A DNA stretch of 62,050 nt, counting the filler, from Diploschistes diacapsis (lineage: Eukaryota), in NCBI GenBank assembly GCA_023645945.1. It is 9 parts of 9 records of this genome, joined end to end, with 100 filler letters (N's around TTAATTAATTAA, not from the genome) between each part and the next. Parts side by side here need not be neighbours in the genome. Positions count along the whole stretch, not along the records: positions 1 to 26,778 come from JALAIB010000172.1; 8 more parts are not named here. One strand, given 5' to 3'. Shown piece by piece: positions 497 through 40,251 of this stretch. The notes beneath the pieces were generated by a model. It ran no database searches. It had not been told where the DNA came from and was given only the letters and a program-made list of their open reading frames with translations. Both the position numbers and the translations under genes were made by a program. Position 1 is the first letter of the stretch. Every line of letters begins with the position of its first letter.

Positions 497-1160
497 CGAT
501 AGAGCGTCTAAACTCTTTATAAAATCGATATAAGGAATAATTATTATTCCGGTTTTAATGTTGTTATTACGATATGAAAGATATATAGACCGTATTTTAG
601 TATTTCGACTGATGGCTTATTTAAAGAACTATTTTTTAATAAAAATTCAAATTTGTCTTATACGCGATCTTATGGTTCGTTAATTTTCTTTTATATCATA
701 AAAGGTGATGTCGAAAGCGTTCGTAATGTATTAAAAAAGCACGAAGCTAATATATAGGATTATAACCCGTATTGTCTGGGTCTTTTATAGGCTGGCCGTT
801 CTGTGCCACTAACACTAACACTAACACCGCAGCCAAAATTTTCTCGACACTGACACTAACACTAACACTACACTACAGTAAACGCATGGACACGGACACC
901 GCAGCTAAAAAATCTAAAACACTGATACTGACACTGCCGGTGTCCGTGACACGGACACTGTAGTGTCAGTGTCAGTGACGGCCAGCCTAGTTTATACCAG
1001 AACTAATTATTAAAGAAGAGGAAGGAGTAAGAAGGGCAAAATCCCCCTAAATACTAATCAGCCAAGATCTTAAACGTGATTTTTAATATCCCGAATACGC
1101 TCTATTAATTTAATTTTATAATTATTTCTCTTTTTCCTACTCTTGTTCTCCGGTGTGACA
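497..1160. repeat. AT-rich, RIP-like degenerate repeat region flanking the Starship-like element
   Basis: TpA-rich and CpA-poor with retained CpG, and no credible ORF. It ends near TGTGACA (~1154-1160), which could be another LTR end. Confidence 0.5.
790..987. mobile_element. MITE (~200 bp) with terminal inverted repeats and internal ACACT(A/G) hexamer arrays
   Basis: TA-GGCTGGCCGT (788-799) and ACGGCCAGCC-TA (978-989) are exact reverse complements. Subterminal CACTAACACTAACACTA on the left mirrors TAGTGTCAGTGTCAGTG on the right. Confidence 0.75.
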
Positions 1161-1410
1161 AGCCCTTGTTCTTAGTAATGGCCGGTTGGTTTCCATATTG
1201 ACTTCGTTAATACTTGGACAAGGGTCGGAAGCCAGGCCTGGTCAACCTGGAGTCTAGAATCGGGATGCTTGGTGTGTCCAAAATCAGGATGCGTGGGTGT
1301 CCAGAAGCGAGAATTTATGAAAAAGGTAGGCAAGCATAGTCTAGGGAGGCTTGCTGCGTCTTTGTCCTTAGTCTATACGTTGCAAACATCTAATATGCCT
1401 TCCGTTATGC

Positions 1411-1590
1411 TGCTCCAAGGGGCCACTCCTTATCCGAGTCTTGCTACTTCTTGTCTCTTTGTATCGATCGTCAATTGCTCCCTAGAAGCCCAACACCTTA
1501 TTCGGGTTCTATTACTTTGTGTTTTCCTTCTCACCGATGGTCAACTGCTCCCTAAAGGGCTATCTCCTTATTCGAGATCTATAGCTCCTG
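1411..1590 (+). repeat. Three imperfect ~65-70 bp direct repeats upstream of the recombinase
   Basis: TGCTCCAAGGGGCCACTCCTTATCCGAG (1411), TGCTCCCTAGAAGCCCAACACCTTATTCGGG (1476) and TGCTCCCTAAAGGGCTATCTCCTTATTCGAG (1546). The last two are preceded by CGAT(C/G)GTCAA. Confidence 0.6.
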
Positions 1591-1676
1591 TCTCTCTTCT
1601 TCTCTACCCTTTACTTTCTCTTTCATTACTTATCTCGCTACCTGCCTGCTTTACTTTCCACTCTCGTTATATTTAG

Positions 1677-4271
1677 GATGCCAGGAAGACTTCTATTGAG
1701 GAATTCTACGAACGAGCACGAAAGAATGGCGCTGAAATAGATACCGGTATTGTCAATAGTGATGAGCTTCTAAGAGACATTGAGCCGTGTACAAAGAGGG
1801 TATATGAGCGTGCGATGAATCTATGGAATGGGTGAGCTCTAAAGATGGCTGATAGAGGAGTTATTCTTGTTCAATGCCGCTGACTTGATAGGTACGCAAA
1901 AGAGCACCCTTATGCGAACGCCAACGATATCGAGTCTTCAAAGGGCTTTGCACGATCTATGGCCTACGGAATAGAAGGGCTGCATGATGGTCCGAAGGCA
2001 GCCTTGGAAACTGTTCTTACCTATTTTCGAAACTTTGTAGCTGCACGTGCTCGAGCGAAAGATCCGCTACCTAAAGCTACCTATGTTTGCATTAGGAATG
2101 TAAGTTGTGATATAGTAACTCGATATATCCGTCTATAGAAAAATTAGAAACGTCTAATCTATTTAATAGTTTATCAAAGGTCCTCTGAGGAAAGAGATTG
2201 GTCTTGCGATAAAAAAGCGGAAGAGGAGATACTGTACCCGAAACCATTTTCAACGTCTCGGGACGCAGCTCTGATTAAGAGACTGGAAGATCTATAAAAG
2301 TCCTGGAATAAGAATAGACAGATGGGGCGAGATTCAATTGAATATATTCTGCGTAGCAAGAATCAGTGAATTTATAGAATCTACAGCTCGTGCCGGTTCT
2401 AACCGAGGATTGCGTTATCTTGTAAGTCCTAATATTAAAGAAATACAATCTACGCTCTACTGATCTATTATCAATTAGGAAATTCTCTTTGGAGTTTTTC
2501 GAAATGAGTATGGGACGACTGAGTTTGGCATTCAGGTGGTGCGAGACGCAAAAGGCATGACAAATTCTCCAGATAAAAGGTCAGTGTTCCCAACACTTCC
2601 AATATATTGTAAAGAGTACAGTGTCTAATTCTATAGTAGGCCAGAGCACTCCTTACATGAGGGCTTGGAGCCGGTACCGTTGATCTGTGATCCAATCTTT
2701 ACGGTACTCACGAAAGCTTTAGGGGATAAGGTATTCAGAGATTACTTTAGTGCAGAAGAACTCTTTGAGATCGAGATAGAAGCTGATGAGATGCGCCGGA
2801 TTGGATTCAGAGCTGAGGTGCTCGATAAGCCATTCTTCGAAAGTTTAGATGGCAATACTCAAAAAGCTGGCGCGGTCGGTAATGATATAAGAGATCTAGG
2901 TCATCGTGCAGGATATGTCAGACCCCCAGCCATGCAAGACTTCAGAGCGGAGGTTATGTTTCCCGGCGGTATGTTGTTGCTGTGGTCCATACTATAGGCT
3001 GATGATTTTTAACTAACGGCTAAAGACCGCAACTATTCATCTGCCCAAACTAAAAAAATGGCTGGGCATCGAGACGAGCAAACCTACGACAGGTACTATG
3101 CACCAAACAATAGTGGTGTTGACGGCCAAAATCTGTACGGAGAAGGAAAACTACGCACAGTTGTCAGCGACCGATTCCGAGGAGAGACTATAACTCACAA
3201 TCCCGAACTCTGGCAGTCGCTACCTGCGGAAAAACAAGAACAAGTCGAAAGGTCTCCAGAGTTCATCGCCATTGAACAGCAGTTAGAGGACCTAGCCGCA
3301 GACGGTAACCTTGCAATCGGTGACGCCAAGGAGCTTCGGAAAATGTTAAGTATTCAGAAGAGAAAATTGGGCAAAGATGCCCTTCGCGAGTTTCAAAAGA
3401 AACAATCGAACAAAATCCTCCTATAGGGAAGTTGTAGCGAATCAATAGGACGTCATCGGACTACATTCTCGCGTACTCGACATCTTATGCCGGAGCGCAG
3501 TTTTCTAGCCGATAACCTATTCCGTGTTGCTCCTCTCCACAGCGAGATAGGTCGGGAGGTTCTTGACAACATGATAGCGCTCTACAAGCAGGAGAACGAA
3601 GTTGGGCACTGTCCGGGCTTAGAGCTAGATAAGTGCAGCTGCGCCAAGCCTTTCGAATCATTTCAGGTGCTGAAGTTCCATTTTCAGGATGTCCATGGCT
3701 ACAAGCTTCCCAGGCGGAAGAGAAAAGGTCTAACAAACTCTAAGCGACCTCGGCTTTGCCGCTCCCTTCTCGAAGCGGGCACTAAATTCGAGACGCACTT
3801 CTTCATCAATGAGACGGAGAAGCTTCCGACATCCAGACTGTGTCTCCCTATATGCTTTTGAAAGTCTCTGAAGACGTTCCGCCCGTTCTACCAGATATAC
3901 TAAACTTACCGGACCTAACAGAGTCAACTTATAGTGGCTCAGCAACACCGGATATTGATGAATTACAGAGACAAGAAGGAAATTTAACCAGCCATGATTA
4001 CGAAGTGCCTGATCTATTCTCCCAGTTTATTCGGTCGTCTTCTCCGTGCATTCGAACGAAGGATGGCAGCGAGATCAGCCAAGCTGTGTCCTCTTCTGTC
4101 AGGTGTCTGCTCCTAAGAGAGACCAGCTCGACCGAAGCGGTTGACCGCAAAGTGGTTAACAGTAATAGCGAGTCAGCCAAGGCTGCACAATCTCGCATCA
4201 TGCTTCCTATGAAGCCGCAGAAAACCAAGCCTAGAATTATACTTCGAATAGGCCCTCGGAAGACTGCCTAA
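1677..4271 (+). pseudogene. DUF3435-family tyrosine recombinase (Starship captain), disrupted
   Basis: Exons 1677-1831, 1892-2099, 2170-2421, 2479-2579, 2640-2968 and 3026 onward, joined at GT-AG introns, give ARISEFIES, VFRNEYG..EFGIQVVRDAKGM, GHRAGY..QDFRAE, AGHRDEQTYDRYYAPNNSGVDGQ and ITHNPELWQSLPAEKQ. There are in-frame stops TGA 2272-2274 and TAG 3424-3426, a frame switch near 3840, and no clear start codon. Confidence 0.85.
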
Positions 4272-4973
4272 CACGCTGCACCTACGAGGTTTATCCCTGG
4301 GAGCGTCCTTGTTCGTTTACTAGACCAAGGGTCGGTCGAAGGTCTTTCCTCCAAATTATTATTCGCTTGTTTAAAGGGCGGAGCGGTGATGGCCGTTCTT
4401 TTACGGGAACTTGGCTCGTTGGAGTAGAGGTTGCAGTTCCAAGGGTAGATTGCCGCCTGACTCCACCTATATAAGCTTAATAATCCATAGGAAAAGCCAT
4501 ACTTCCTGTCCGGCCTTCACCAATATAGTTGTTCCATTTTTCAAGCATTGAAGCACGGTTGATCATCGTAGATTGTACCGACCACATAGAAGCGCCATAG
4601 GCTGAGGTTTTAAAATGGGTAAATTAGACTATACCTTCGGCATCTGCACTTGCAACTACCTGCGCCATGCTGCCGTTGAGCTGATCGAGCAACTGTGAGG
4701 TGGCGTATCCTCAGGACGCACAGTGCAGCTTTGGACCACCCACGCAACATCTTATCCAATCATGCTGCATTTCAACAGCTGGCCATCCATCTGATTATGA
4801 AAGGCTGAGATTTGGTGAATCCCGTCTAGCGTCTAGCGTAGCGTGATTCTGGTCCAACAAACCCCGCATTAGGACCCCCCTATCACACCTTTGATAGTAT
4901 AAGAACACAAGACTGGACCGATTTCCCACCTCAGTCCTCTCCATCCTCTTCAAATTCATACCACTACGCCAAA

Positions 4974-6325
4974 ATGCTCGCAAGGAAGAGAGCTGCAAGA
5001 TTAGCTGCCCAGGCAGCCGAGCCAATCTCGTACGCGCACGACCTATTCATAAAGGGTGCTTTTTAATTTTCTGTACGAGCGCACTGATACATTATAGACC
5101 CTACTGTACTGACCCATGGACTCTGCTCATCGGCCCCAAGCGAACAAAATATACTGTTCTTTCCGGAATACTTTCCAAACACCCACAGTTCAAAGGAAAT
5201 CGTGAAATATCGCAATCGTCTTCGACAGTAGAATTGCCCGAAGTATGCGAGGATGCCGGTCACACACTTGTGCATTACCTCTATACCGGCACCTATGAAA
5301 CGCTTCAGTCAAAAGATACTGAAGATAAGACTGCTGAGCTTAGGAGAAATGCACACCTCTATGGAATTGCTACCAAGTATGATCTTACTGGTCTAAAATT
5401 ACTAGCCCAAACAGAAATTGAGAAGACGCAAGGTGTGGTGGCTATTATTGATTTTCTAAATATTGCCAAGGACGTTTTTCAAATCTTGCTGGAGAAGGAT
5501 GATTGGTTTACCCTCCACGTCAAGGCAGAGATAGAGCGCGCACTGGAGGTCGATGAAAGTTTGTTCAGGAACATAGGCTTCTTGGAACTTGTTGGAGAGG
5601 TCAAAAGCTTCGACAAGTTCCTTGTGGAAATTATGGGTAGGATCTATATCGACAATATTGCGGTCATGGCCCGAAAGACACAGAGTCCCACCAACACGTC
5701 CTCTAGCAAACTTGCCTTCACTCCCGAGAGTTCGAGCATTTCCGCTAATGAGAAGTCCTATGATGAGCCTCTGTTCGAGGGCTTAGCAGAGTCGACAACG
5801 CTTGAAAACCCAGCATTGTGCGATAAAACCCCTCTCGGCAAAGACTTTCACTATGAAACAATATCTTCTGAGGCAGTTGAATGTGAGGCAGTTGAATGTG
5901 AAGAGACTCCCCATGGAAGAGCGAGCAAGAAGGAAAAAAAGAAAGGGAAAAAAGGAAAAGGACGAACCTCAGAGTCACAGATTGAGCCGATACCTGTACC
6001 TGAGCCTGAGCCTGAGCCTGCTCATTACCCTCTTGAAGAGGCATGTGTCGAATGCCATACTGAGCCTGAGCCTGCTCATTACCCTCTTGAAGAGGCATGT
6101 GTCGAATGCCATACTGAGTCTGAGCCTGCTCATTACCCTCTTGAAGAGGCATGTGTCGAATGCCATACTGAGCCTAATGTTCAAGAAAATGTTTTATGTG
6201 TCGACCGGGCTGAGCATTTGCGAACCTATGACTCATGGGCACATTGCAGAAAGTGCTGCGCCATGATACATCAATTATCCCTTCGAATTCCACGCAATAT
6301 GGCCATCGACGAGCGACGATTTTGA
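4974..6325 (+). CDS. BTB/POZ-domain protein with acidic linker, three 18-aa repeats and a C-terminal Cys/His motif
   Basis: ATG 4974 and intron 5030-5097 join in frame to the 5234-6325 ORF. SPYCTDPWTLLIGP...VELPEVCEDAGHTLVHYLYTGTY...AHLYGIATKYDLTGLKLLA is typical of fungal BTB. The C-terminus reads C..RAEHL..W.HCRKC. Confidence 0.8.
6007..6174 (+). repeat. Near-perfect 54-bp tandem repeat x3 encoding EPEPAHYPLEEACVECHT
   Basis: Units 6007-6060, 6061-6114 and 6115-6168 are identical except for one C>T. Confidence 0.95.
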
Positions 6326-7128
6326 AGTGGTCGAGCCGAGTCTCGACGCGCGAGAATTGGACTTGTGAAGATCTGCTTCTGCCTAAGTGAAAGTTGTATA
6401 AACTGTGAATTGGTAGAAGAAATTTTGGTTTTTATAACGGTTAATGAAGATTAAAGTCTAGCTATCTAAATACGTGAATCCATCACATGTCTTCAATGCG
6501 AAAATTGTCAAGAAAACCTTTGTGAAATTATACTTTGTGACCACGTACAGCAGCGTTGGGCCTTGGCCCACCTATGACAGAGTGTATGAGCATGCCAGCG
6601 ATAAGGGGTTGGACATTTAATCCTGATCTTCTCCTATTTCATTTCATGTCCGGGATTTAGGACCGTGGCTATCTTTTTATTTCGCCTGACATGGGCGAAG
6701 GGACTCACTGCTTTACCTTTAGCTCACATTGAAGCAGCATGCACGCGTGAGCGCGGTCGCTGCATAAATACAGTATCATCTACTCTCCGTAAGCAAAGCC
6801 AAGCCGGTCCTACCACACGGCTATCAGTCCTATGGCAGGGCGCGTCTTTTTGTCTGGTCTCCTTTGGCGGATGCGATCTGCCCAGTATGCAGAAGGGAGA
6901 TATTGGCGGATGAGAAGCTTGAACCGCCAGCTCCGCATGCCACAGCAATCACGCTACTTCGATTGAGATGGATTATCATGAGCGGGATATGCTTGGACGC
7001 GATGCTGACGCGGGCTAACGGTTACAATATTTGGTTGACTGCTCAAGTCACTAAACACTCTCGGTTGGTAATAGAGAATTGAATTGAGTGAGAACGCAGC
7101 ACGAGGAAGAGGAAACATTGGCAGTTCC

Positions 7129-9119
7129 CTATTCAGCTCTGCCCCACTCGACATAACGCTCAGTATTCGTGAAATCAGACGCCAAATTCAGGCGAAACTC
7201 TTCTTCAGCGCCTTCCTGTTCTGGTTGAAGCTTCAATTTGGTAGGCCACTCCTCAATGACGGTATTGCTCTCCTTCATCCGAACGCACAGATCAGTGGAG
7301 ATTTGCTTAAAATTGTGGAATACCATATATCTAAAGAACGGTCAGCTTCAGGATAACAATTTCAGATCATTAGTATTTACCTCTCGAAATATATGTCCAG
7401 ATTAAGCGCTAAATCGCGCGCATCCCATATTCTCAATAAATCTGCATCGTTCATCGATGGGGGGGGAAACATCCGAGGAGACGGAAGGTACTTAGAGAGA
7501 AACTCTATGTCAGGCATTTCGTCCACTGAACTCCCCATCTTGACTGCCTCCTTGACTGCGTTAACAAAGAGGGTGATAAGAGTGGCATGCGGGTTCTGTC
7601 GTGGTGATTGTAGCAAGGGGGATAAGAGAGAAAGCGTATTGCGGATTCCAACATAGCCTCTATCGCAGATATTAGCTACCTTGCGGTAATTTAGCAGGCA
7701 TCTAGTCAATTGGGTACGAAGCATACCTCTATTCTGGAGTATGTGTTTCGCTCAAGATGCTGGGGCAATTCTTTCACATCCATATTATATAGAACAAAGC
7801 CAATTCGGATTTTCCCAAGTCGGTGTAGGAATCTTTTGAAAATGTCATGGAGATAGATGTACAATTTGCCGTACCAATCCCGTGGCGCAGGCGATGATAT
7901 ATGTTGAACATGCAAGATTGGCCATCCACTGGAAGGATCCGCCTTGTCATCCATAGGCCAGGTATTAGAAGTGTGGAAAAAGGTTCTGGGTAATTGAAAT
8001 TAGGATCGACTGAACAGATTTGAGGATACTCACGGGTTTGGTATGTGGAACCCTATGCGTGGATGTCCGAACGGGAGAAGTAAACCATCCTCTCTGAATC
8101 GCTGCTTCGCAATACGCATGAAAGGTGATGCATCTTTAAAGTACCATCGGTCCCGATAGTCCACCCTTTCAGGAGCAAGTGTCACAGCCGTGCGGGTCTG
8201 CGTGGCATCTTTAAAGGTCACATCGTCCGGTACATCTAAGAACTGGTGGAGTTGAAGCCAGTCCTTTTTCTTCAGTACGAGGCGAAGGGTTTGCCCGCCC
8301 GCAAATGCCCAGGTTTTGCCTAGTATAGTGTTCGGCGGCTTGTTGGCGATCTGGCTACACACTTCCATAATCAGTGGCTTCACACCATCCTGTAGCCGAG
8401 ACAGCAAACTTGAGGAAATTGAAGCAGAGTACCAAAGGTGAATCAACTCTTCTGCAGTGTCTGGTAATGCTGCCGTTCCCTTAGCATCACCGGTGCCTTG
8501 TGCAGTGAGGGCCAGAAGTAGCAAAAGGGTGTTTCGTGCTACCACGTCAAACTCTCGATCATTCAGCGTAATGTTGATCCGCTGGTTCGTCTCGTCTGGA
8601 AGGTCTGCAACTGTCTTCACGACATGGCGCAAGTCACCCGACGCTGTTTTTTGTTAGTATATGTAGCCCAACCGGATATGACACGGACCAGCGAAGAGCA
8701 ACTCGAGATCTTCTTGATAATGGATGCCTTCATTCTGCTCCAGCTTCAAAATATCCAAGGCTGGAGTATTTCCCCACAAGTATTTTTTGCCACCAAACAC
8801 GTTGTGCCAGTTCTTAGAAGCTGTGCCGGTCGCCCATGGCGGTTCGCGGCCTTCGCGATCCCATGCCGGACGCCAGTTGTCCTTACCCAGTGGAGATCTA
8901 CAGACCTTCCTGTGCTCTGGCCAATGAGCCTTTTGACAATCAAGTCCACAATACTGATTGCGATTGTCAGTGCATGTTTGCCAATCACGAGACAGGTGAA
9001 AGAGCGCTAACGACAACAAGCTTGCAGTTTCCGCACGCATTACTCCCCAGTCGCTCGCAGGGACACGTTCCCGGGATCCAATTAGCGCAAGTAGGTAGAA
9101 GAACTGAAATTGTACTCAT
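7129..9119 (-). CDS. MYND zinc-finger / DUF4470-like protein (multi-exon)
   Basis: ATG 9119 MSTISVLLPTCANW...ACGNCKLVV/YCGLDCQKAHWPEHRKVC (MYND), then KYLWGNTPALDILKL, LLFA/SGDLRHVVKTV, TLNDREFDVVARN, DGLLLPFGHPR, DKADPSSGW, NICDRGYVG, NPHATLITLFVNAV and EWPTKLKL. Exons are separated by GT-AG introns. Confidence 0.85.
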
Positions 9120-9739
9120 AGTAGTAATGTATACTAGTTATAGTATTATAGGAGGGTCAGTTAGTACAGCTCAACGAAAGAGTCACGGCATAAGCCTTTG
9201 AAAGGAAGCGTTAAAAGAAAAGCAGCTTTAGAATAAATAGTAGGAGAAAGTAAGTTACTGTTTGAAGGGTCAGTAGAAGATAGTTAGATGGGATATCAAG
9301 TCGAACGTCGGAAAATCTGCTTGAAGCTTTTCAAAATTAGTTTAGTTCAGCGATGGGGCTCAGAATTTGTAGGTAGCGTTGGCCTAGAGAAAATGCTTGG
9401 CTGTTCGATCCCGTGGTCGGGAGGATGACGAACAACGGGCAGCGACCCCCGCAAGTGGCTTTGATCCAAGGATGAACATCATTCCCTCGTTGCCAAGTAC
9501 AATTCTCAACGAGGAAATAACCGGTACCTGCGCTCGAGTGAGGAGCTTCTTCTGTTTGTCAAGATCCAAGACATATACGAGATATGCATACACAGGCTCT
9601 AACAAGCTAATATGCCCTTTTAGAATAGGCACCGCTCAGACTATGTTGGCTTGCTGCCTAGACTTAAACCAGCCTCGTCTCTCTTCTGCACGCTAGGAGG
9701 CCGTCTAGTATCTATATTCCCAATAATTATTCCGCATAA

Positions 9740-9826
9740 ATCATCTTTATATATTGTCGCTGCGAAGGACGGCTATAAGGCGATAGCGAAGCTGGTGCTT
9801 GAAATTGGTAACGCTAGGCCCAACCG
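9740..9826 (+). pseudogene. Isolated degenerate ankyrin repeat fragment
   Basis: SLYIVAAKDGYKAIAKLVLEIGNARPN resembles the consensus PL..AA..GH.AI.KLLL..G.A.PN, with His replaced by Tyr as a C>T transition would produce. Confidence 0.5.
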
Positions 9827-10031
9827 AGCGTTGTGTCCGTGGTGCATTATCACGTGAACCGACGAGCGACGTTTGCCGTGCGCCTAATTTAGACGTCGCA
9901 GAGGAATATCCATCACTCAGAGAGATCCATGCTAGTGTATGTTCACAACCCTTTTTAAAGGCTGCTGGAATTTACTAACAGTTAAGAAAAGATCTCATAT
10001 ACATTTAGACGGACTTTAGCACATTCTAAAG

Positions 10032-10700
10032 ATGTCCACAGCAAATTGTCCCGATAGTCTCCCTATTCCTGAAACTGGGGACTCTGTGGCGCTTCTCTGT
10101 TCAGAACTGATTCCTTTGGAAAGGGTAATTCGGGATAAAAAAAGCATTGCTGTCGCAACCAAGTTTGCTGCTGTTCCACTTCAGCAAAGGGACGCCACAA
10201 AGAACGCCGTCAAACAAATGAGCTCCGCTGAATCCCAGTGCTGGCAGGCATATGCCGAGAAACGCTTCCAACTACCGAAAATTGACTGGTCCTGTGATGT
10301 TGGTATCGTTCCTACTTCGACAAGGCCTCTCCGGGTGGCTCGACGGCGTGCGGAGGCTTTGAACTACCTTTACGAAACCGATCAGGCGACGCCAGGGCAC
10401 TCAGTCTGGTTTGTAGAAAAGCAGCTTCCATACCTTCCCTTGGTGAAAGCAATGGCGCGAGTGATTGGAGCAGAAAGAGACTTGCTAGGAGGCCACTGTA
10501 CCTTGAACGCAACACAAATGGCGGATTTGCAGACAATTAACAAAATTTTGTCAATATCTGGAAGCATCATTGAGACAAACAAGAAAGACGTCTTACCGCC
10601 AGGACTTGGGCAGGCACAGCAAGTATTAGGATGTCAGCGAGAGCAACTTCGATTATTGCTTAGAGGTGTGAAAGCCAAAAGACCATTGGATCCCCTCTAA
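10032..10700 (+). CDS. Hypothetical protein (222 aa), intronless, Starship cargo
   Basis: Uninterrupted ATG-started ORF with protein-like composition; no family recognised. Confidence 0.65.
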   Translation: MSTANCPDSLPIPETGDSVALLCSELIPLERVIRDKKSIAVATKFAAVPLQQRDATKNAVKQMSSAESQCWQAYAEKRFQLPKIDWSCDVGIVPTSTRPLRVARRRAEALNYLYETDQATPGHSVWFVEKQLPYLPLVKAMARVIGAERDLLGGHCTLNATQMADLQTINKILSISGSIIETNKKDVLPPGLGQAQQVLGCQREQLRLLLRGVKAKRPLDPL

Positions 10701-11398
10701 TTAATTGACAACTTCAACACTATAGATCTCTCGATAGTGGATAGGTGCGTACATAATGATCGATCGTGGATGCTCGCACGCCCTTAACTACGCAGCGCTC
10801 AAATTACCCAGCTAATTCTAGTCCTAGTACAAGAAAAGCGAGTCGTAGGTTTTTCTCAACTGTTCCAAGTGACAATGATTTGGAGAACTGCCCAGGCGCG
10901 GGTGCGTCGCAACGCGCGCTCATTCACTAAGGCTGCACGGCTCAGATACTGCCGTACTATGATTACCAGGAGCAATAAGGGCTTGATGGTGGAGCTGTGG
11001 TGAAGGGTCCTGCAATGTCACTGAAAGGAGGCTCCCTAGAAACTAGGCGACGAGGCATCGACGCAAACGTAATCTTCGGGTGAGAGACGCAGGGGTCCAG
11101 GGCGGCTAAAGCACAGAACTCATAGAATCAAGCAAATGCCCATATGTATGTGAAGCCCAGATTGCTATGATTTGGCTCGCCATGGTGGGCAACTGGCGAT
11201 CCTGGGGTGCATATTATGGGTACATTTTTACGATCATTTGGTGAATACTCAATACCATAAAACTATCAAATTTTATTAGCCTAAATACTCGTTGGGCGAC
11301 TCATGAAAAACCTTTGGCACGCAATACGTATCTTTTTATTTTAGACCATTCTCGACCACTTGCAACCCCAACAAAGCAGCAGTACAGAAAGCACATTT

Positions 11399-12020
11399 TA
11401 ACCCTCTACCAAAAAGTCAAGTATACCTTCACCAAACTCTTCGGTCTCTAGCAAGGAATTCCAAAAGGGCATTCATGACGGATCCTCATAAAGATGTACG
11501 TGCGCCACCTTAATGATGATACGCCTTAATTGCGCGTGACCATCATCCATACACCCGAACACTTCACGGGTGCAATCAAGAAGCTCCTCCTCTGTACAAT
11601 TTTCTTGCAGATTAGGTTCAAGGTTTCGAAGAGCGAGTGTCTGCAACTCGTGCAGTTCGAGTTGACTAGCAAGTAAAAATACTCTCAGGTGGATCAAGAA
11701 TGGTGGTTCGTCCGCTATCAATTTGTTTATCCGCCATTCAGGCACCAATGAGAAGGACTCTTACCAAAGTCTTGAAGGGCCGTGATTGGATCGTATGAAT
11801 AACTCTTTTGGTATATGTAGGTGAATACACGCCAAATCGAATGTACGCTAGCAGAGGACCAGTTTAGCGGTCATACTTCGCCGGCTGAGAAGACCCCGAG
11901 TTTGTTTTTGAAAAAGGGACACTGAGTCTCCAAGATGATGCAATGAACAGGTAATTCGACTCCAGTCTTTCCTAGTCTAATGGTAAGGTCAGAAAATTTG
12001 TGGTTGTTAAACTAGCTGTC
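11399..12020 (-). pseudogene. BTB/POZ-domain pseudogene
   Basis: The minus strand reads FNNHKFSDLTIRLGKTGVELPVHCIILETQCPFFK...GEV*PLNW..SIWRVFTYIYQKSY (stop at 11871-11873), an intron, then LIHLRVFLLASQLELHELQTLA...LRRIIIKVA and a frame-shifted tail FWNSLLETEEFGEGILDFLVEG*. The first exon upstream is unclear. Confidence 0.75.
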
Positions 12021-12683
12021 CTACTATCAGCTACTTAGCGCAAGCACTAGGATTAATACGTTGCCAACTATGGCCTGGTATTGCGTGTTCCACGTTATTC
12101 GAATGTAAGGGTTCGATATTAAAGGACGAATCTAGCGTCCAAAGCCTCAAGTCCGAGACTTGTATTGCATACAGTTGGCATAGAAGACATGGCTTGTTCG
12201 GTTTGTTGTTATCTGGATGATATAATAAAATGCTATAGCTCAAAGGCGGAGCCAGAGAATTTATAAGCAGATTTCTATCTGGGGTCTTCCCACTTCAGGT
12301 CCTAGTCCACTTCAGGTCCCTTCTTATAACTCTTGCCCCGAAGTTCTGAGTTGTGTCCAATTCTGCCCCATATCCACTGTCCATTTCTGCCCAGTTGACT
12401 TCTGCCTAGTGACTAGGAAAACAGCTCGAAGAGTGTCGCATTGTAGAACTTCGCATGACGTTGGATATATCAGAGTGAGGGAAAAGATGCTGAGAAGAAT
12501 GTTAGAAAAATGAGCGTACTATTGTCGAAACAAAAGAATTTGCCACCTTTGCTTCGTCAAATCTTGATGTACAGGCAATTGCCAGAGCTAATTCGTAAGA
12601 TAGCCTTCCAGCTGACACAGTCAAAGCATATCACAAGATCCCTGAGCCTCCACCTTTCAGGCTGATCTGCTTGCATTAAGATG

Positions 12684-13447
12684 TCAATTATCACGTCTGA
12701 TGGCTATCCGCTTCCCATGCATCCATCCCAATGCGCCAACTGTACGACCGTCATCTGGAAAGAAAGTTGTTTCGGTTTCGGTCTCAGAAGGCCATGTTGT
12801 CCAAGACGAATGTTGCTCCTCTGTAGAGCCGGCTGAAGCTCCATTTTGACTAAGAATGCTTCCGAGGGGAAATGTTGGTGGGATCAGCATATTGAGAATT
12901 TTGGTGGTCTGTGTCTTGGTCTTTTTCTTTTTCCCTGATTGAGATGTGGTAAATATGGTAACAATTACCATTACGTGACTTGAGAGTATTTCACAAGGAC
13001 CTTCGAGTCTCTTAATTCTCGCATCAGCGGCTGCAAAGCCGGGGCGAAGAACTAAAGTCGAAGGTGCTTCTAAGAGCGGGACGGCAATACCGTCGTCTTC
13101 AACATCAATGGTGCGGTTGGCTGCATTGTTTGGGTTCCATAGTCTAAGATCAATGTCTTTACCATCCAGCATTAGTGACCAGTGGCGAGTGCGAGGAATA
13201 TATGCTTGGGGCTTTTCTTTACGGACTCGGGTGATCAATTCGTCAACGAATAGGCGCAGAGTCTGCCCAATATCAGCGGTTCATTCCCGTCGAAATTCAT
13301 TTATAATTTTACTGATTCTGTGGCTACATCAATACCAGTTGCAGAGTAAGTCGTTGACAAATCTGAGAAACGAAAGCAGACGCTTAGTTTTGAAAGGCGC
13401 ATTCTTTCTTCTAAGAGAAGCGGCGGCGCATCAGAAGTATATGGCAT
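12684..13447 (-). CDS. Hypothetical protein, two exons, Starship cargo
   Basis: MPYTSDAPPLLLEER... (ATG 13447), a probable short intron near 13280-13312, then ..IGQTLRLFVDELITRVRK... in the 12684-13238 frame. No family recognised. Confidence 0.5.
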
Positions 13448-13725
13448 GGTAATCGGTTGTTTTTGAAATGTCCTTAATCGATGAATTGATATACCATTGA
13501 GATTATCGCTTGAAATAATATAAACTACAGTTGTCGCATGGTATGGTAATGATGTCATGATGACGTTGCTGAACCAAGGTTATGTCTGAGCCATACCAAA
13601 GTCTTCCAGATTTTGGAGGACATTATGTTCGGTCCTCGTTTCTCCTATTCATCAACCATACCCGCATCTGTCAACTTTCTTTTGAACCTCAGTATTCCTT
13701 ACGCCCGTCATCTCTGTATTACAGA

Positions 13726-16161
13726 ATGTTGTCAGAAGATAGCAACCGACTTGAAAAGATCGACAGATTATACTCCCTACGGCTCGATAAATATGTTCCC
13801 TTACCTATGGTAAGATCACTTTCCATTGATCAATAGCTTGACAGCTGACTGATGATGCATACAGCTTGTCGTAGTAGGTGACCAGTCTAGCGGCAAGAGC
13901 TCTGTCCTCGAGGGGCTCACTGGCCTGCCTTTTCCTCGGGATGCTGGTCTCTGTACTCGGTTCCCCACTCAAGTGGTCTTCAAACGTTCTGTAACAAAAA
14001 GGATTGAAATTAGTATCATACCAGCCAGCGTTAACAACAGTTATGATGAGAAAGTGACTGGCCACTGGGAAGTTGACGACTTGAACCATGAAAACTTCCT
14101 CAAATATCTTTCGAAGGTAATTCCCTAAAAATATCCAAGAAGATCGAACTGCTTATTCTTATCAGGCATGTGAGTGCATGGGGGTACCTTCTGTAGGAGC
14201 CTCTGCGGAAAATTCTCTTAAGTCGTTCTCGCGTGATATCCTGAAAATCGAAATGTCAGGCCCGGATTTTGAGCATTTCAGTGTGGTAGATTTACCGGGC
14301 ATTTTTCGGAGTATGTTATCCGAATCTTGCAGAGTCTGCATGCTCATCCGTTAGCGCCAACACCAGGGAAAACCACCAAAGAGGACATGCCATTCATTAA
14401 GGAAATGATAGGAGATTATATTCAAAATGAACGGTGCATAATACTGTAAGAGCATCCAGACGCAGTAGAGACAATCGCTAAGATTCGTGCAGAGCTGTCG
14501 TCCCTGCCAATGTTGACATAGCTACTCAAGAAATTGTCCAAATGGCGGAGGACGCAGACAGGGAAGGCATAAGGACATTAGCCGTCCTGACCAAACCAGA
14601 TCTTGTAGATAAAGGAGCCGAAGATAAGGTTCGCCCCAGTATTCTTTCAATAAAGATCGATGATAATAAAATTTGACAGGTTTTGGATCTAGTCCTTGGG
14701 CGAGGGGGACACTTTCGGCTTGGCTATACTGTTGTGTGCAATCGAAGTCAGAGCAACCTGGACGTCGACCTAGCACAAAGAAATAAGGCAGAGGCCTCCT
14801 TCTTTCTCGCAAAACCTTGGAGCGCTGTTCCAGCTGATCGGGCTGGGATAGGTGCCCTTAAACTTCGGCTGGATAAACTACTTGTAGAGCTGACTAGGCA
14901 GGAATTCCGTAACGTCTCCAAAGATATCAGCCAGGCCATACAAGGTTGCTACAAACGGCTTGAAGATTTGGGACCGGAAAGATCTAATAAAACAGAGCAA
15001 AGAAATTTTCTGCTTCGAATCGCTACGTCTTTCCAAAATCTAACCTCACACGCCCTTGATGCTTATTACTGGCGAGATGACTGCTTTGCTAGCGAAGATG
15101 AGCTTCGACTTGCTACTGTTGTTAAGAGGCTCCAGGAAGAATTTTCCAATACAATGCGTAAGAATGGTCATATACGTGGTTTTCAGAACTCCAGCTCCGT
15201 AAAACGTGCGACCACAACATCAGAATCAGGTTATAAACAGGCATCGAAAACTATGGATGGGTTGCCTGATGTCCTCGAGACAACTGACGCATCGGATCTT
15301 GAAGAGATTGATCATCAAAGTCATCTGTCTTCCACAGCACTAAACCCAGAGTTGCAAAATGAGCTATTTCTTGCCTTAGCGACAGTTCCGAAGCTTCTGG
15401 AAATGCCAACCGATGGCATCTACGACTGGATTAGACGAGAATATGACCGTTCCAAAGGGTTCGAGATAGGCACAATCAATCCCTCTGTATTGCCTGTGCT
15501 TTATCATGAACAGATTAAGAATTGGCGTTCTATTACAAAATCTCATATCAACGAGGTCATTAAGGCAACGCATTATTTTATTTACGCCCTACTTAGCCAC
15601 GTATGCCCCGATCCTGCGATACGAAAGAAATTCTGGGGGTACCTGCTTGGTCCTGTGCTTGCTTCTTACAAAAACGCAATCGACCATGTTGATATGCTTT
15701 TGCAGATTGAGGAGACTGGGAATATGAGGACTCTGAATCACTATTTTGCGATAACGCGAAAGCGGCTCCAGCTCGCCCGGATTCAACGACGATTTGCGAA
15801 GTCTAAAACCTGGGAAACTAAGGACGAAAAAGAGCCACTCATACGGATGAAAGATGTGCTGGATATCCATCTAAGCAATGAGGACCAAGCTGTGGAGGAC
15901 CTTCATGACATACTGCGCTCTTACTACAAATTGTCCCGAAAGCAGTTCGTTGATGCTATCTCCAAAGGGGCTGTGGATTTTCTGCTGTTGACCGTGAAGG
16001 ATGGGCCTCTAAGGGTGTGTTCGCCTGAGTTTGTGGGTGCACTTCCCGACAAGGACCTGGAGCAAATAGCAGGTGAAAGTACTGAAGATATTTCAGTGAG
16101 AGCTAATCTTGCACGAGAACTCTCAGTTCTGCAAGAAGGTCAGAAGATTTTAGGTGCCTAG
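13726..16161 (+). CDS. Dynamin-family (Mx-like) large GTPase with GED
   Basis: Six exons give G1 [32 protein letters not shown]3 VVDLPG, G4 LTKPD, then LGYTVVCNR and the GED-like [18 protein letters not shown]. No stops seen. An upstream in-frame ATG exists at 13582. Confidence 0.92.
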
Positions 16162-17127
16162 CGGTACAAACTGAACCAAGCTCTGGCTTTGAATCGTCGA
16201 GAATCTCAGAGTTAGTTCTCAGTAGGTATATTATGGAGCAATGCCTGTATTTCCTTTAACGATGGATTTCGAGCCACGATCTTATAATCAAAAAGGAGAT
16301 CAACTTGCGATTAGATCAAGAAATGGTCGAATCTTAAGCTTCGATATTAATCGTATAATACTTGAACTTGATATATAAACACTCAGCGTAGTTGTGGGTC
16401 TGTTAGCAGTCAGTATATATATTACTAGGGTATCGCCACCTCAGTCACTGAGGTAGCCATCGGCCAGTGTTGCTTGTGTACGCTATTTTGTTTTATACTA
16501 AAATCTACTATATACGAATAACAATCGTGTAAAAAGACCCATCTATATATTCTAGCGAACTACTAACGCCAGGTCCGTTTAATTTAGCTAGGTAGGATAT
16601 ATTCATTTTAGCTATTCCATCCATTGCCGTGGGAAATATTAAAACTATCGCCGCAGTTATACTTTTCTCAAGGCTATCTTAACATGTAGAGGTAAAAGGG
16701 ATATTAATTATATCCAGATATTATTTATATCGAGGGTAAGTATGGATAAGCGTAGGTACCCGGTTGCACGAGAATGACGCAGTCGCGACGGTAGGGCAGC
16801 CATTATCCTAGTCTGAAAGAGGGGTGATGTCGACGCAGGTTCCTGTTCACTTGGCGGTGGCGGGGCGCGCTCCCTGGCCCCTCTGCCTCCGGACTTGCGA
16901 CGCTTATATACCATCATGCACCTAACGTCACGCATAGGCTCCGACATATTCGCCAGCTCTTTGTCTTCTTTTACCCCTATAATCTCCGTTCAAACCGCCT
17001 CCAGCGCGGTTCATCACCTAAACACAAAGACCTGTCCCTTTCCCCTGTCTCACCCAACCTAGCCTCGGGTTTCAGCACGTTGCGCCGAAACTCCTGCGAA
17101 AAGCAGAAAGGTAGCACGCTTACGAGG

Positions 17128-17914
17128 ATGGGCAATCGGTTAGTCCACTTCTCTTACACATGTGAAGCGAGTCCAGGGGCATCATGCAGGCTCTTGGTAT
17201 CAACTCAAAACAACGACAGGACTAGCTAACACTATGCGCAGTCCTTCGAAGCTTTCGAAAGAAGAGCTTCTTCAGCTCCAAGCGGATACGCGTTTCGATA
17301 AGAAGGAGCTGCAGCAGTGGTATAAAGGTCGGCTGGCCTTGATATCTATTCTATGATGCCATTGGCGCTCATCTAATATAGGGTTCTTAAAGGACTGCCC
17401 TTCCGGTAAGCTGTCCGAAGAGGGCTTCCAGAACATATATAAGCAGTTCTTCCCGAATGGCGACTCTTCGGAATTCGCATCGAAAGTGTTCCATGTCTTC
17501 GACAGAGACGGCTCGGGCGAGATAGACTTCAAGGAGTTCATTTGCGCGCTGAGCATAACTTCGAGAGGGAGTGTGGAGGACAAGCTCGAGTGGGCATTCC
17601 AGCTGTACGATCTGGATAAGGACGGGAAGATATCTTTCAACGAGATGCTGGAGATTGTGAAGGCCATTTACAAAATGGTGAGTCTTTGCAAATCATGATC
17701 CCAGACCGTACTATGCTAACAGGAGCTTTTGCAGGTCGGATCCATGGTTCAGCTTCCGGAAGACGAATCCACACCCGAGAAGCGGGTCAGGAAGATCTTC
17801 CGCATGATGGACAAGGATGAGAATGGCTTCTTGGACAAGCAGGAGTTCAAGGAAGGAAGCCAACGAGACGAGAGCATTGTTTCCGCTCTCTCCCTTTACG
17901 ATGGTCTGGTTTAG
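17128..17914 (+). CDS. FRQ1: Frequenin / neuronal calcium sensor-1
   Basis: MGN N-terminus (myristoylation Gly), [20 protein letters not shown], and EF-hand loops [24 protein letters not shown] and [13 protein letters not shown]-terminus [10 protein letters not shown]; three introns. Confidence 0.95.
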
Positions 17915-19074
17915 GTTTATATTCTGGGTTGGCTTTGGGGCTAGGCTTTGTGAAATTATGCCTAGTTGTATATCTACCTTTCACAGTTTGGAATACCCAG
18001 GGTTGTTGGCCGTTTCGCTTTGAGAAAATCATATCGTGCAACACGCATGTGAACTGGCGCGGGTTATTCAATTCCTGATGCTTTCCGTTGGCCGCACTGT
18101 CTACTGATATTCAAGGCTATTGCGCCTTGGATTCGGTCGGGATGGATTCTTGAGAGCGATGCCAACGAGATGGGAATGCAAAAAGACTCGGAATTGTCTG
18201 TGAAATGCTATAGAGGTCACCTTCGAAGAGCCTTTTGAGAAGACGTGTTGTTGCTACCTGCTGTTGCCTACTGGACGCTTGGATGTTGAGAAGTCTGTAT
18301 TCATGATTCTATTACGCCCACGATTGATACAAGCCATGGTATACCACGACCCAACGTCCCATTCGCGATCGAAGAATTGGCTTGAGACGTCACTTGAGCC
18401 AGGGCCTGGATTCCCATGTTTGAGTGGGTTTCCTAATAATAGATTGCTGTATTGCGAAGCTACCACGACATGGCAATTGAAAAAGAAGTTCAATTCGCCC
18501 CCTATTTCAAGGTTTGGCAACTATCGTAGGTACTAGGTATGTACTAGTTGCTTTGAGCCATATCTAAACCTTCCCTTATAAACCTTGCCTTGTCCCATCA
18601 GATCGCCTTATCCACATTCAAGGTCATGGTCCCTATACTTAGTACCGCGCATATATGCTGCGTCCCAACAGATCATCGAATACTAGGTGATCCGGTAGAG
18701 AAGGTAGATTCTCATCGCTCAGGAATTGGTTGGATTGCTTGGGATGACATTAGAGGAGCTGATATGGGACATTGGATGCATACGGTAGCCTGGCTTACTG
18801 CTTACTGACGAGGACGAGGTTGTGACAATTGATGATTTGATTCAGCGGTTCACCAGAGAGAGCGGCAGGGATTAAATCCGATTGGCTGAGGTGATCTGAA
18901 GTGAAGCTGGCCAAAAAAGTACCAGGCCAGTGTCGCTCTTTTCTCATCACCTTCATCAATGATGCGGAATCGCTAGTCCTCAAGGGACTGGATACTCGAA
19001 TTTCACTTGGCTGTTGACCCTGTCTTTGGGGGATTTTTTCTAACATCATCTACTCCGCACCGGGAAGAGACGCA

Positions 19075-21139
19075 ATGGAAGGCAGCTCAGTGTTCAGCAT
19101 TCGGTGGCTGGCCGCAACTTTGTGTTCTTTCTTGCTCCTCTCGCCTCTGGCATCTGCCTTCTACCTTCCGGGCGTTGCGCCTACATCTTATGAAGAAGGG
19201 GACTTGGTACCTCTGCATGTTAATAGGGTCATACCCGTACAGTCCGATGATGACCAGCAGCTGCATTCCGCAGTTTCCTATGACTACTACAACCGCTTGT
19301 TTCACTTCTGCAGGCCGGACGATTCAAAAGGAGGTGTGCAGGATGTTGGTCCCGAGTCGCTTGGCGCAGTGCTGTTCGGGGATCGCATAAAGACTTCGCC
19401 TTTCGAATTGAAGATGAAGAAAAATGAAACCTGCAAGAGACTATGCAACGAGCAGGTGTTCAAACCGCGAGGTGCTAAGTTCTTCAACAACCGAATAAAG
19501 CAGAATTACGCATATAGTTGGCTAGTCGACGGTCTACCCGCAGGACAGCAGTACCTGAGTCCTAGCGGCCAGATATACTATAGCCGAGGGTTTCCTCTGG
19601 GCAAGCATGAGGGTACCCAGACTCCTCAGGTCTACAATCACTACGACATCGTGATAGACTACCATGATGTTGGAAAAGATAAGTACCGCGTTGTCGGTGT
19701 CGTTGTTCAACCAGGATCTGCAAGAGACTCGAAGACCATCGAGAATGACGGCGTCGAATGTGGCGATGTGACAAGGGAGGAAAACGCCCTTAGGCTCAAT
19801 GAGGTTGGCGACACGTCTGTCACGTGGACATATAGTGTCTTTTGGAGACCGTCGCGCGTCGCTTGGGCTGTCCGTTGGGATACCTACCTCCATGTCGATG
19901 ACCCAAAGATCCATTGGTTCTCGCTCATCAACTCCACAGTCATTGTCTTTTTCCTTGTAGGAACAGTGTCTGCAATCTTGACGAGGGCATTGAGAAAGGA
20001 CTTCGCCCGATACAACAGGCTCGACACGTTCAACTTGGATGATTTTTCCGCTGCTGATGACCCAGATGAGGCTGTCCAGGAGGACTCTGGATGGAAGCTC
20101 GTACATGGAGATGTCTTTAGGCCACCTCCGAACGCTCTCCTACTGAGCGTTTTCCTCGGCAATGGTGCTCAGCTTTTCCTAATGACCGGCATCACAATCA
20201 TTTTTGCCTTGTTTGGCTTCCTCTCGCCTTCGAACCGAGGATCCTTGGGTACTGCCGTTCTTGTGCTGTATACTATTCTGGGTTTCGTTGGTGGCTACGT
20301 TTCCGCTCGCACGTACAAGACCTTCGGAGGAGAAGCGTGGAAGCGCAACATCACTGTGACCCCGGTGTTCGTTCCCGGCGTCGTCTTCAGCGTCTTCTTT
20401 ACACTAAATTTCTTCCTGTGGATCCGAGGTTCCAGTAACGCCGTACCATTTTCCACTATGCTTGTTCTTGTGGGACTATGGTTCCTAATCACTCTGCCAC
20501 TCAGTATCGCAGGAAGCTGGGCTGGGTTCAGACAGCCGGTATGCACCACATCCCTGAATGAAGTCCCTGACTGACAGCATCCAGCCCTTCTCATCGCCTG
20601 TACGTACAAATCAGATTCCGCGCCAAATTCCTCCAATGCATTCCTACCTCCGCCCACTTTCCTCAATGCTATGGGTCGGCTCGCTTCCCTTCGGAGCCAT
20701 TTTCGTCGAGCTTTTCTTCGTCATGAACAGCATCTGGTTCGATAAGATCTACTACATGTTCGGATTTCTGTTTCTGTGCTACGGGATCACGATCATTACC
20801 TGCGCTGCAGTGACCGTAATGTTTGTCTACTATCTCTTGTGCGCAGAGAACTACCGATGGCAATGGAGGGCCTTCAATAGCGCCGGAGCCGGCGCAGCGT
20901 TCGTCTTCATGTTTTCGCTCATATACTGGGTCTGGAAATTGCGGTTCGCCGGCCTTACTTCTGTCGTGCTTTACGTCGGTTACAGCTCCCTGATCAGTTT
21001 CTTGTTCTACATATTAACAGGTACGTATGGTGCTCCAACACAATTTCAGCCCACTAAACCATCTTGTGTAGGAACTATTGGGTTCTTCTCGAGCTGGGCG
21101 TTTATACACAGGATCTACAGATCCATTCGCATAGATTGA
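19075..21139 (+). CDS. EMP70: Endomembrane protein 70 / TM9SF nonaspanin
   Basis: Signal peptide followed by FYLPGVAPTSY, IHWFSLINS, EDSGWKLVHGDVFRPP and PVRTNQIPRQIP; C-terminus IYRSIRID; two introns. Confidence 0.95.
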
Positions 21140-21684
21140 GCCGCGAAGTTGTTCAACTTGTACTATATGTATTTTTCTCCATGACAGCGAATGCATACGG
21201 GATTTGTTGGGGCTGTTTTTGCGTCGGGATAACAGCTTTGTCTAGTCTCGACATTAAATGTTACAAAAGTTTTCAACTTTTACGGGCGCTTTTCAGCGAG
21301 GTGTTACGCTGTTGTAAGAGTCATAAGATACTCATAGCTGCTTGAGCGCGTTGCGGCTTAAAATATTCTGCCCCTCGATAAACCCCACAACCGGATCATA
21401 TCTCCTGTCTACACATCCTCGAGCTCCTGCAACCATACCTTGTGAATCTAGTTGCTTGATTGTTGTTGTTCACCGACTCTTCCTATACCCTGACCCTTTG
21501 TTTATTAGGGTTGAACGATTCTTAGCTTCTCAGCAGTCCTGGGTGTTCTTCACGACCAGTCTATTCCGATCTTTATACGGTTCTATTCGTCATCAACGCG
21601 GAGACATATTAGCCTTTCAGCTTCACCCTTTCACATATTTGACCGCTTCGTCGGTGGTTCGGCGACTGCTGGGCTTTTCGAATA

Positions 21685-26878: not shown

Positions 26879-26924
26879 TCTTTCGGCGAATCATCGAGCC
26901 GATAATGTTAAAAGAAAGGGATAA

Positions 26925-27377
26925 TATTACGATTTAAGATACTAATAATAATATTTAGTATATAATAGTTAGTCGAATATTTCCCAGTCATTTCTTATAT
27001 ATAATCCAATTATAATAACGCGGGACACGTGATCGATAAACGACGTCCGATAACTATTTAATAATTAACGTTTGGCGGTTATTAGATAGAAATCGTCAGC
27101 CGATTAGAATTTAATATTTATTAATATTTAATTTATATATAAACGTCGTTATAATTTTTATAAATTCAGAACGTGTTTATTTTTATAAATATTTTTAATT
27201 ATTACTCGGGATTAATTTATATTCGTTATTTTTATTATTAAAAAGCTTTCTTTCTAAAGACAGTCTAAGACCTGTAACTGTTCTACTTTCTTCTCCTGCT
27301 TGCACTCCTCTTCTAACAGAGACCAAACCCACCTTGATCCTACTCGTGTATACCTTGTATAGATAGAGATCATAACA
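26925..27377 (+). mobile_element. 3' LTR of an LTR retrotransposon preceded by a polypurine tract
   Basis: AAAAGAAAGGGATAA (~26910-26924) is followed by TATTACGATTTAAGATACTAA (transition-mutated TGTTACGATCCAAGGTACTAA). The LTR ends GATCATAACA at 27377. Confidence 0.75.
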
Positions 27378-40147: not shown

Positions 40148-40251
40148 CTATAAGGCTTTAAATTAATTATTTTTAGAAATATTTTATTATAAATATTTAT
40201 TATTGTAGTTTTGTTATTGTATCATGTGTTCGGGTACTAGGGTCACGACTC
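40148..40251 (+). mobile_element. Terminus of the same DNA transposon as 28280-28398
   Basis: Near-identical GCTTTAAATTAATTATTTTTAGAAATATTTTA...CGGGTACTAGGGTCACGACTC-TA. Confidence 0.75.

Follow-up and report, generated by a model that had tools for sequence, protein, structure and literature searches.

The locus raises two questions: whether a compact gene block near the start of a 62,050-nt stretch of DNA from the lichen fungus Diploschistes diacapsis (assembly GCA_023645945.1; the whole stretch, filler included, is hereafter called the window) belongs to a Starship, and whether anything in it could still move. Starships carry at their 5' end the gene of a DUF3435 tyrosine recombinase, the captain, which excises the element and inserts it, with everything downstream, at a new site. 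The first-pass annotation had placed a small, possibly undescribed Starship of about 15 kb at 1180-16465, headed by a recombinase gene and carrying a cargo thought to resemble an immunity or conflict module. Our analysis favours the region being the immobile remnant of a small Starship-type element, 'derelict' in the term of the starfish paper (PMC11162782), and we consider the chance of this being correct to be about even. The features of the block are listed below, with positions counted along the window.

1677-4271, + strand: predicted DUF3435 'captain' tyrosine-recombinase pseudogene with about five introns (Pfam and tblastn)
4898-6325, + strand: long open reading frame (ORF), probably BTB-like, with the BTB-like part at about 5189-5368
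7132-9119, - strand: MYND zinc-finger and DUF4470 gene, apparently intact, with about five introns (Pfam and alignment)
10020-10700, + strand: orphan ORF, unsupported (no Pfam family at E 0.1)
11473-12011, - strand: candidate BTB gene relic of three short ORFs
12684-13280, - strand: orphan ORF, unsupported (no Pfam family at E 0.05)
13726-16161, + strand: intact Mx/Vps1-like dynamin-family GTPase gene of about six exons, about 720 aa (Pfam and exon mapping)

Captain gene

A tyrosine recombinase gene leads the block at about 1677-4271, as had been proposed. It is the first recognisable gene past a repeat of the repeat-induced point mutation (RIP) type and is transcribed toward the other genes, the 5' end itself lying undefined. 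Pfam detected one captain exon only, at 3013-3426 (PF11917, E 3.8e-6, 26.5 bits against a cut-off of 25.8). A search with this exon returned 11 proteins at E <= 0.001 with 44-55% identity, the best protein match being 52% identical, and the matches included full-length captain homologues of 782-848 aa from Gaeumannomyces, Colletotrichum, Helicocarpus and Blastomyces. When four full-length homologues (P0004, P0006, P0008, P0009) were used in tblastn, E values of 2e-105 to 3e-81 were obtained at 37-40% identity, with the alignment running from residue 2-3 at base 1680 to about 3654 across five intron-like gaps. About 560 aa of conserved core and a Cys/His finger-like stretch are present, as in the full-length homologues.

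Lesions in the captain gene were read from alignments with three of these homologues (P0004, P0006 and P0008). The sole ATG (1678-1680) shares its last base with the start of the conserved reading, the codon GCC (1680-1682), and is therefore out of frame, and the conserved stretch 'ARKTSIEEFY' has a TAG ahead of it in its own frame; loss of one base after the ATG would give this pattern. A TGA at 2272-2274 takes the place of the Trp of 'QLW-NDW', which is conserved in all three homologues, and because conserved residues flank it on both sides it is not removable by an intron. At 2935-2937, CAA (Gln) is found where the three homologues have the His of 'HDFRAE', which, to judge from the general motif pattern, is presumably the HxxR box of tyrosine recombinases. 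A TAG occurs at 3424-3426 in a linker of lower conservation, and the reading frame shifts near 3813-3861. Taken together, the frameshift at the start, the two in-frame stops and the Gln in place of His indicate that the captain gene is, as far as its sequence can tell, a pseudogene, not intact and with an incomplete active site. With the recombinase gene dead, nothing in the locus would be able to move unaided.

The alternative that the block is an active compact Starship, whose captain lesions are assembly errors or are spliced out in an unusual way, appears very improbable. Long stretches of the gene retain about 40% identity to full-length captains, most of the presumed catalytic residues are kept and the assembly is metagenome-derived, so that single-base errors are possible. 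However, three independent disabling changes would have to be explained in this way, two of which are substitutions rather than homopolymer-type errors, and the TGA at the conserved Trp is one that no intron could excise. The public annotation of the organism contributed no long captain to the exon matches, the best of which was the 52% identical protein given above.

The RIP index of the block 1000-4750 is intermediate (-0.45 to +0.16), and that of 4750-8750 and 9750-16000 is -0.2 to -1.26, where the genes appear unmutated. This suggests that the captain region, and not the remainder, was mutated as repeated DNA.

Accessory genes

The Mx-like dynamin reported at the right of the block was well supported. 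All three domains were matched by Pfam (Dynamin_N 4.5e-13, Dynamin_M 7.7e-21, GED 2.9e-5), the GTPase motifs GDQSSGKS (P-loop, G1), DLPG (G3) and TKPD (G4) are all intact, and exon mapping on P0013, P0014 and P0017 indicated a complete gene once four or five introns were allowed. In its domains and intact motifs it is like other fungal Mx/Vps1-like dynamins, whose automatic names include 'Interferon-induced GTP-binding protein' and 'related to VPS1'. Its likeness to antiviral Mx is one of domain architecture alone, and in contrast to Vps1/Dnm1 it belongs to a divergent, multi-copy accessory branch (28-53% identity among the metagenome loci described below) and is not the conserved orthologue. 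The nearest named relatives are from metagenome-assembled genomes (MAGs) of Teloschistaceae lichens, at 57-60% identity. The last exon is 100% identical to P0012, 'MAG: hypothetical protein LQ340_001964 [Diploschistes diacapsis]', a public model of 393 aa, probably mis-annotated, that begins past the P-loop and DLPG and leaves out some of the middle domain.

For the MYND/DUF4470-like gene, both domains were found (PF01753 MYND, E 3.6e-5; PF14737 DUF4470, E 1.7e-18), in agreement with the first-pass annotation. The gene aligns collinearly and end to end with P0055, P0057 and P0061 (574-582 aa; residues 1-580) at 58-70% identity, and since this full-length alignment is broken at intron-like gaps alone, the gene looks intact at the sequence level. 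Relatives at E <= 0.001 numbered 166, with names known for the 120 listed. The best matches, 64-69% identical, are from Leotiomycetes, Elaphomyces and Tolypocladium; the listed Leotiomycetes include Bisporella, Pseudogymnoascus, Tricladium and Phialocephala, and the other listed relatives include Xylariales, Aspergillus, Penicillium, Fusarium and more. No lichen name occurs among the 120, from the same database that gave lichen-MAG names for 5 of 41 dynamin matches. The gene shows an accessory-type, patchy non-lichen distribution.

The remaining predictions for the interior of the block fared less well. For the proposed BTB gene at 4898-6325, 24 of 30 Atlas feature matches fell in BTB-bearing ascomycete clusters (scores 0.95-0.96), but the Pfam BTB match (E 0.096) was below threshold, so the assignment is weak. 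The ORF has no ATG before its BTB-like part, which places its start in an upstream exon. It also contains three tandem 54-nt repeats at 6006-6175 that are 98-100% identical and encode a repeated Cys/His-containing peptide; weak Pfam matches of this stretch to multi-haem cytochrome c (E 0.002) are probably spurious. The claimed BTB pseudogene at 11473-12011 is similarly weak: one 46-aa piece (11874-12011) gave a BTB match of E 8.6e-4, but its 19.9 bits are below the curated cut-off of 20.5, and the remaining pieces gave no family match in Pfam. No second domain, such as the substrate-binding one that a Cullin-3 adaptor would carry, was found beside BTB in the BTB-like ORFs.

An ankyrin relic had also been described, but no ankyrin family was matched among the ORFs scanned over 4272-17300, and tblastn with three ankyrin proteins reached E 0.54 at best. 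The two orphan genes lacked family support, and the first of them (10020-10700), which has no Atlas match and low recognition, may not be a gene.

Dynamin-captain linkage in metagenome loci

The last exon of the dynamin was aligned with 30 relatives and the resulting pattern was scanned against metagenome contigs. A dynamin relative is encoded by 112 of the 148 pattern matches, and 80 loci were kept (878,649 nt), forming 49 groups at 90% DNA identity (522,017 nt). Frequenin, EMP70 and UBC, the right-hand neighbours in the window, were present in none of the 80 loci, and there is no sign of conserved synteny with the frequenin neighbourhood.

No captain was found in the 80 loci by tblastn with the relatives of the window's captain or with a hidden Markov model of that clade. 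This search was a false negative for other captain lineages. Clustering of neighbouring ORFs gave one family common to five loci, identified by Pfam as DUF3435 (E 7.5e-66 to 1.4e-12). The Pfam scan covered 217 ORFs of 150 aa or longer, taken from one representative locus per group (276 before those mostly overlapped by a longer ORF were dropped), and four shorter ones. With four seeds, phmmer turned up no further captains among all 8,324 ORFs of 50 aa or more, although short-exon captains of other lineages could escape it. In all, 4 of the 49 groups have a DUF3435 gene or relic at 1-4.3 kb from the dynamin, as follows.

L058 (= L059): captain 14056 to 12249 (-); truncated C-terminal dynamin remnant 9956-10728 (+)
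L072 (= L012): captain 4732-6534 (+); dynamin 8426-10699 (+), co-directional as in the window
L031: captain 15934 to 14132 (-); full-length dynamin 9305-11470 (+), convergent
L001: captain relic of 158 nt, 9013-9171 (-); dynamin 3092-4727 (+), no GTPase part found

The dynamin sits 3' of the captain in every one of these groups, as it does in the window. The dynamins near captains in these loci are often the next gene and are often decaying along with the captain. The captains of L031, L072 and L001 form one lineage (64-79% identity) and that of L058 another (26-42%); the window captain fits neither and represents a third lineage. A quick tree of 55 dynamin sequences placed the window protein with L001 and four Teloschistaceae lichen proteins (SH-aLRT 100) and put L072 in a distant clade; L031 and L058 were excluded as too fragmented. 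L001, with its captain relic, is the closest relative with context of the window's dynamin and the only one of the 80 loci from the same dynamin clade.

A density of 8,369 size-filtered captains in 1,422 genomes (PMC11162782) and an assumed genome size of about 40 Mb would correspond to about 0.06 captains in the roughly 0.4 Mb of flanks, which is a rough inference and not a test. As a control, all other transposon domains jointly (Tc5/DDE_1, LINE endonuclease, copia gag, chromodomain) were also found in four groups (L011, L037, L056, L071). Of the genes of the block, dynamin relatives co-occur with captains elsewhere in the four linked groups, but no captain was seen in 45 of the 49 groups. 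For the other window cargo, no BTB-like, MYND-DUF4470 or orphan match was found in the 80 loci except for a weak DUF4470-like match in L019 (E 8e-6). The dynamin-captain linkage recurs in distant branches and is far from universal.

Several further features of these loci were recorded. L072 (3718-6545) and L031 (14121-16928) have 2.8 kb in common at 79% identity, comprising the captain and about 1 kb upstream, and the abrupt end of this similarity is a candidate for a shared Starship 5' end; the dynamins of the two loci are oppositely oriented relative to the captain. L024, a close relative of the L072 dynamin, has no DUF3435 ORF within 10 kb and carries a four-finger zf-C2H2_jaz ORF and a ferric-reductase-type FAD_binding_8 ORF (14516-15064 and 20270-20764), domain types that occur around Starship captains or auxiliary genes. 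In L001, a TPR_10/TPR_12 gene, a repeat type common in fungal NLR-like proteins, lies at 7376-8461 between the captain relic and the dynamin. In L053, a second divergent Dynamin_N ORF (2498-3871) and a DUF7605 ORF are found about 5 kb upstream of the matched dynamin on the opposite strand, and this may be a dynamin gene pair.

Element ends and status of the block

A captain heading an accessory block, a dynamin family found downstream of captains elsewhere and a patchily distributed second gene are together best fitted by a derelict Starship. The BTB-like, MYND-DUF4470 and dynamin genes would then have come as cargo of the captain and been retained while it decayed. The 5' end of such an element would be expected within about 1180-1676 and its 3' end within 16162 to about 17000. 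The sequences at and beyond these limits are as follows.

1-1180, no strand: RIP-type degraded AT-rich repeat block (GC 0.35-0.36) at the window's left edge
1180-1676, + strand: interval of about 500 nt from the repeat to the captain start, defined by position alone
16162-17127, no strand: intergenic stretch ahead of the frequenin ATG, AT-rich at 16220-16760
17128-17695, + strand: frequenin (EF-hands), with its ATG at 17128
19-21 kb: EMP70, a housekeeping gene of the right flank

Neither interval yielded a boundary. The ORF at 1179-1676 had no family match in Pfam, and 1180-1676 had no significant inverted or direct repeat partner. On the other side, the RIP index is slightly positive over 16001-17250, and 16162-17127 had no repeat partner in the repeat search of 1-20 kb. 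No tRNA, 5S rRNA or other Rfam family that might serve as a target site was found in 1-30 kb, and repeats of 4-6 nt are too short to judge without an empty site. Sampled words of 11501-21500, half from the block and half from the flank, were all present in a public run labelled 'lichen metagenome', which may be where the DNA came from, and in shares of 0.48 and 0.17 in two other runs, values that do not bear on whether the block is there. The element end given at 16465 found no specific support. Two candidate pairs around the captain were rejected: an inverted 19-nt pair (1290-1308 / 4728-4746) scored 26 against 20.0 +/- 2.3 with a maximum of 29 in 200 shuffles, and a direct 18-nt pair (1211-1228 / 4318-4335) was within the shuffled-control range. 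The GC content at third codon positions is 0.41-0.54 for the block genes and 0.50-0.68 for the flanking genes, which counts for an element without deciding the matter, the gap being small and possibly due to expression level.

A number of observations weigh against a derelict Starship. No terminal repeats bracket 1180 and 16465, the same repeat search giving chance-level short pairs only. The RIP-like signal is limited to the repeat and, mildly, to the captain block, and this confinement fits a repeated captain beside single-copy genes equally well as an element. Domains of the auxiliary Starship genes DUF3723, ferric reductase (FRE), patatin-like (PLP) and NLR were absent from Pfam ORF scans of 1-17 kb. 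At about 15 kb, the proposed element would fall close to the lower limit of known Starship sizes, and a 17.9-kb Xanthoria candidate without cargo is described by its authors as a false positive. Vertical descent of the dynamin is possible, its nearest named relatives being lichen fungi. The linkage in metagenome loci is not general, given the groups lacking a captain, and only 45 of the 80 loci extend 5 kb or more beyond the dynamin in one or both directions. Finally, the captain and dynamin of the window are separated by 9.5 kb with several genes between them, whereas they are immediate neighbours in three of the four linked loci.

These points bear directly on a second explanation, in which a solo captain relic, the fragment of an older or unrelated Starship, lies beside resident lineage-specific genes. 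Because no end is defined, the RIP signal stops past the captain and the auxiliary genes are absent, we consider this a serious possibility and nearly as likely as a derelict element. It would account for the mild RIP-type signal that spans 1000-4750 and falls sharply past about 4750, for the want of element ends and canonical auxiliary genes, for a window captain of a lineage other than those beside dynamins elsewhere and for the lichen affinity of the dynamin's nearest named relatives. It also accords with the view of the starfish authors (PMC11162782) that, for many annotated captains, the likely explanation is a pseudogene or a position outside any identifiable element. Less readily explained by a solo relic are the adjacency of dynamin and captain in 4 of 49 loci, L001 included and always on the 3' side, a MYND-DUF4470 gene without a lichen-named relative among the 120 listed and the occurrence of the frequenin/EMP70 neighbourhood in none of the 80 dynamin loci. 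For the original proposal of a small Starship, what stood was a captain-type head gene facing the other genes; with the captain dead and no ends found, the block would be a derelict at most.

Flanking repeats and neighbouring genes

The first-pass annotation had set the block between RIP-mutated repeats and conserved housekeeping genes, and both flanks were confirmed. On the left, bases 1-1250 have a GC content of 0.35-0.42 and a composite RIP index of +0.5 to +0.7, and a partial copy of the repeat occurs at 27.1-27.5 kb: 38-280 matches 27133-27377 in inverted orientation at 85% identity, and 129-243 matches 27379-27493 at 76% identity. Since the 38-280 unit recurs at 27 kb, is AT-rich and has a positive RIP index, the left edge of the window is a decayed repeat. 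The window starts within this repeat, and the left flank proper of any element falls outside it. On the right, frequenin and EMP70 are followed by a UBC gene, an ankyrin-DHHC gene, Rsm22, MMS19 and Rpc31.

The inverted copies also allow a larger composite element of about 40-27,400, bounded by 240-nt inverted repeats and enclosing frequenin, EMP70 and UBC. Beyond the 85% identity of the inverted pair, the evidence is unfavourable, and we regard such a composite as scarcely credible. Both copies lie in AT-rich RIP-type blocks, the one at 27 kb being palindromic, and resemble a scattered small repeat; the genes that would be enclosed, frequenin, EMP70 and UBC, have conserved housekeeping roles and a higher GC content at third codon positions; and the inverted repeats reported to date for Starships measure about 10-12 nt.

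The AT-rich block at 26900-27750 is palindromic (26927-27040 against 27739-27625) and bears the 38-280 unit in both orientations about base 27378. Within the left repeat, 791-990 is a palindrome of about 200 nt with many short 'cactaa/cactga' repeats and inverted ends aggctggccgt ... acggccagcct, and it resembles a small insert of the foldback or MITE type. Dispersed short repeats are also found among the housekeeping genes, at 28283-28373 / 40155-40244 (92%) and 43974-44050 / 49050-49126 (84%). The far right of the window (58757-61315) may be a small neighbourhood of secondary metabolism, with one ORF bearing a fungal rhodopsin domain and two that are UstYa-like.

Comparison with known Starships

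The block is like the described Starships of Pezizomycotina (Gluck-Thaler et al. 2022; Urquhart et al. 2023; starfish, Gluck-Thaler & Vogan 2024, PMC11162782) in having a DUF3435 gene first that faces accessory genes. It differs in that the captain appears to be a pseudogene, that no terminal repeats were found, that DUF3723, FRE, PLP and NLR are absent and that its size would be about 15 kb, close to the lower limit. Closer in state is Wallaby, reported as a degraded Starship with a stop-riddled captain (PMC11162782), with which the window shares premature captain stops, presumed immobility and nearby RIP-type mutation. The boundaries of Wallaby are reported as known by comparison, whereas the ends in the window are undefined and 'derelict Starship' is here an inference.

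Tangerine, a Starship family of lichen-forming Lecanoromycetes described from a screen of 554 genomes for captains (PMC13486527), is alike in its lichen-forming host, in cargo relatives found mainly in non-lichen fungi and in surrounding RIP-affected repeats. In contrast to the window, its members are described as 85-102 kb in size, with defined ends, an empty site, DUF3723, PLP and NLR. Tangerine captains are described as lacking the core-binding domain, whereas the window captain aligns with long homologues from residue 2. A patchy cross-class distribution is reported for lichen Starship cargo in the same source, and that of the MYND-DUF4470 gene is similar.

Some of the individual genes have precedents. 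Table 1 of PMC12134995 names a dynamin-like gene in the Starship cargo of Gaeumannomyces, and dynamin-family domains are reported among lineage-dependent Aspergillus fumigatus accessory genes beside captains. In the papers searched, dynamins near captains are found only in that table entry and in a passing remark (bioRxiv 10.64898/2026.04.14.718449). Starship cargo of A. fumigatus is also reported to include a BTB gene. Our literature search found no paper pairing Starship with DUF4470, or Starship and captain with MYND.

Significance

Taken alone, the locus is of modest weight, adding a further decayed Starship-type relic in lichen formers, whose Starships are described as first reported in 2026 (PMC13486527). 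It also carries a caution, namely that a gene block headed by a DUF3435 match is not yet a Starship. Starships, degraded ones and those of lichen fungi are already known, and the only part that might be new is a general link between dynamins and captains. That Mx/Vps1-like dynamin genes are a recurrent, hitherto unrecognised companion of Starship captains is a tentative suggestion that we hold to be rather unlikely at present. The immunity or conflict module of the first-pass annotation is speculation, nothing in the analysis speaks for a defence/proteostasis gene set, with the ankyrin/NLR-type piece absent and the BTB assignments weak, and a defence or conflict role for the dynamin is a guess; the linkage is compatible with a conflict-related role and shows none. 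Should the link prove to hold genome-wide, the auxiliary Starship genes, now DUF3723, FRE, PLP and NLR, would come to include this dynamin, which might serve the element, in conflict, defence or maintenance, rather than the host.

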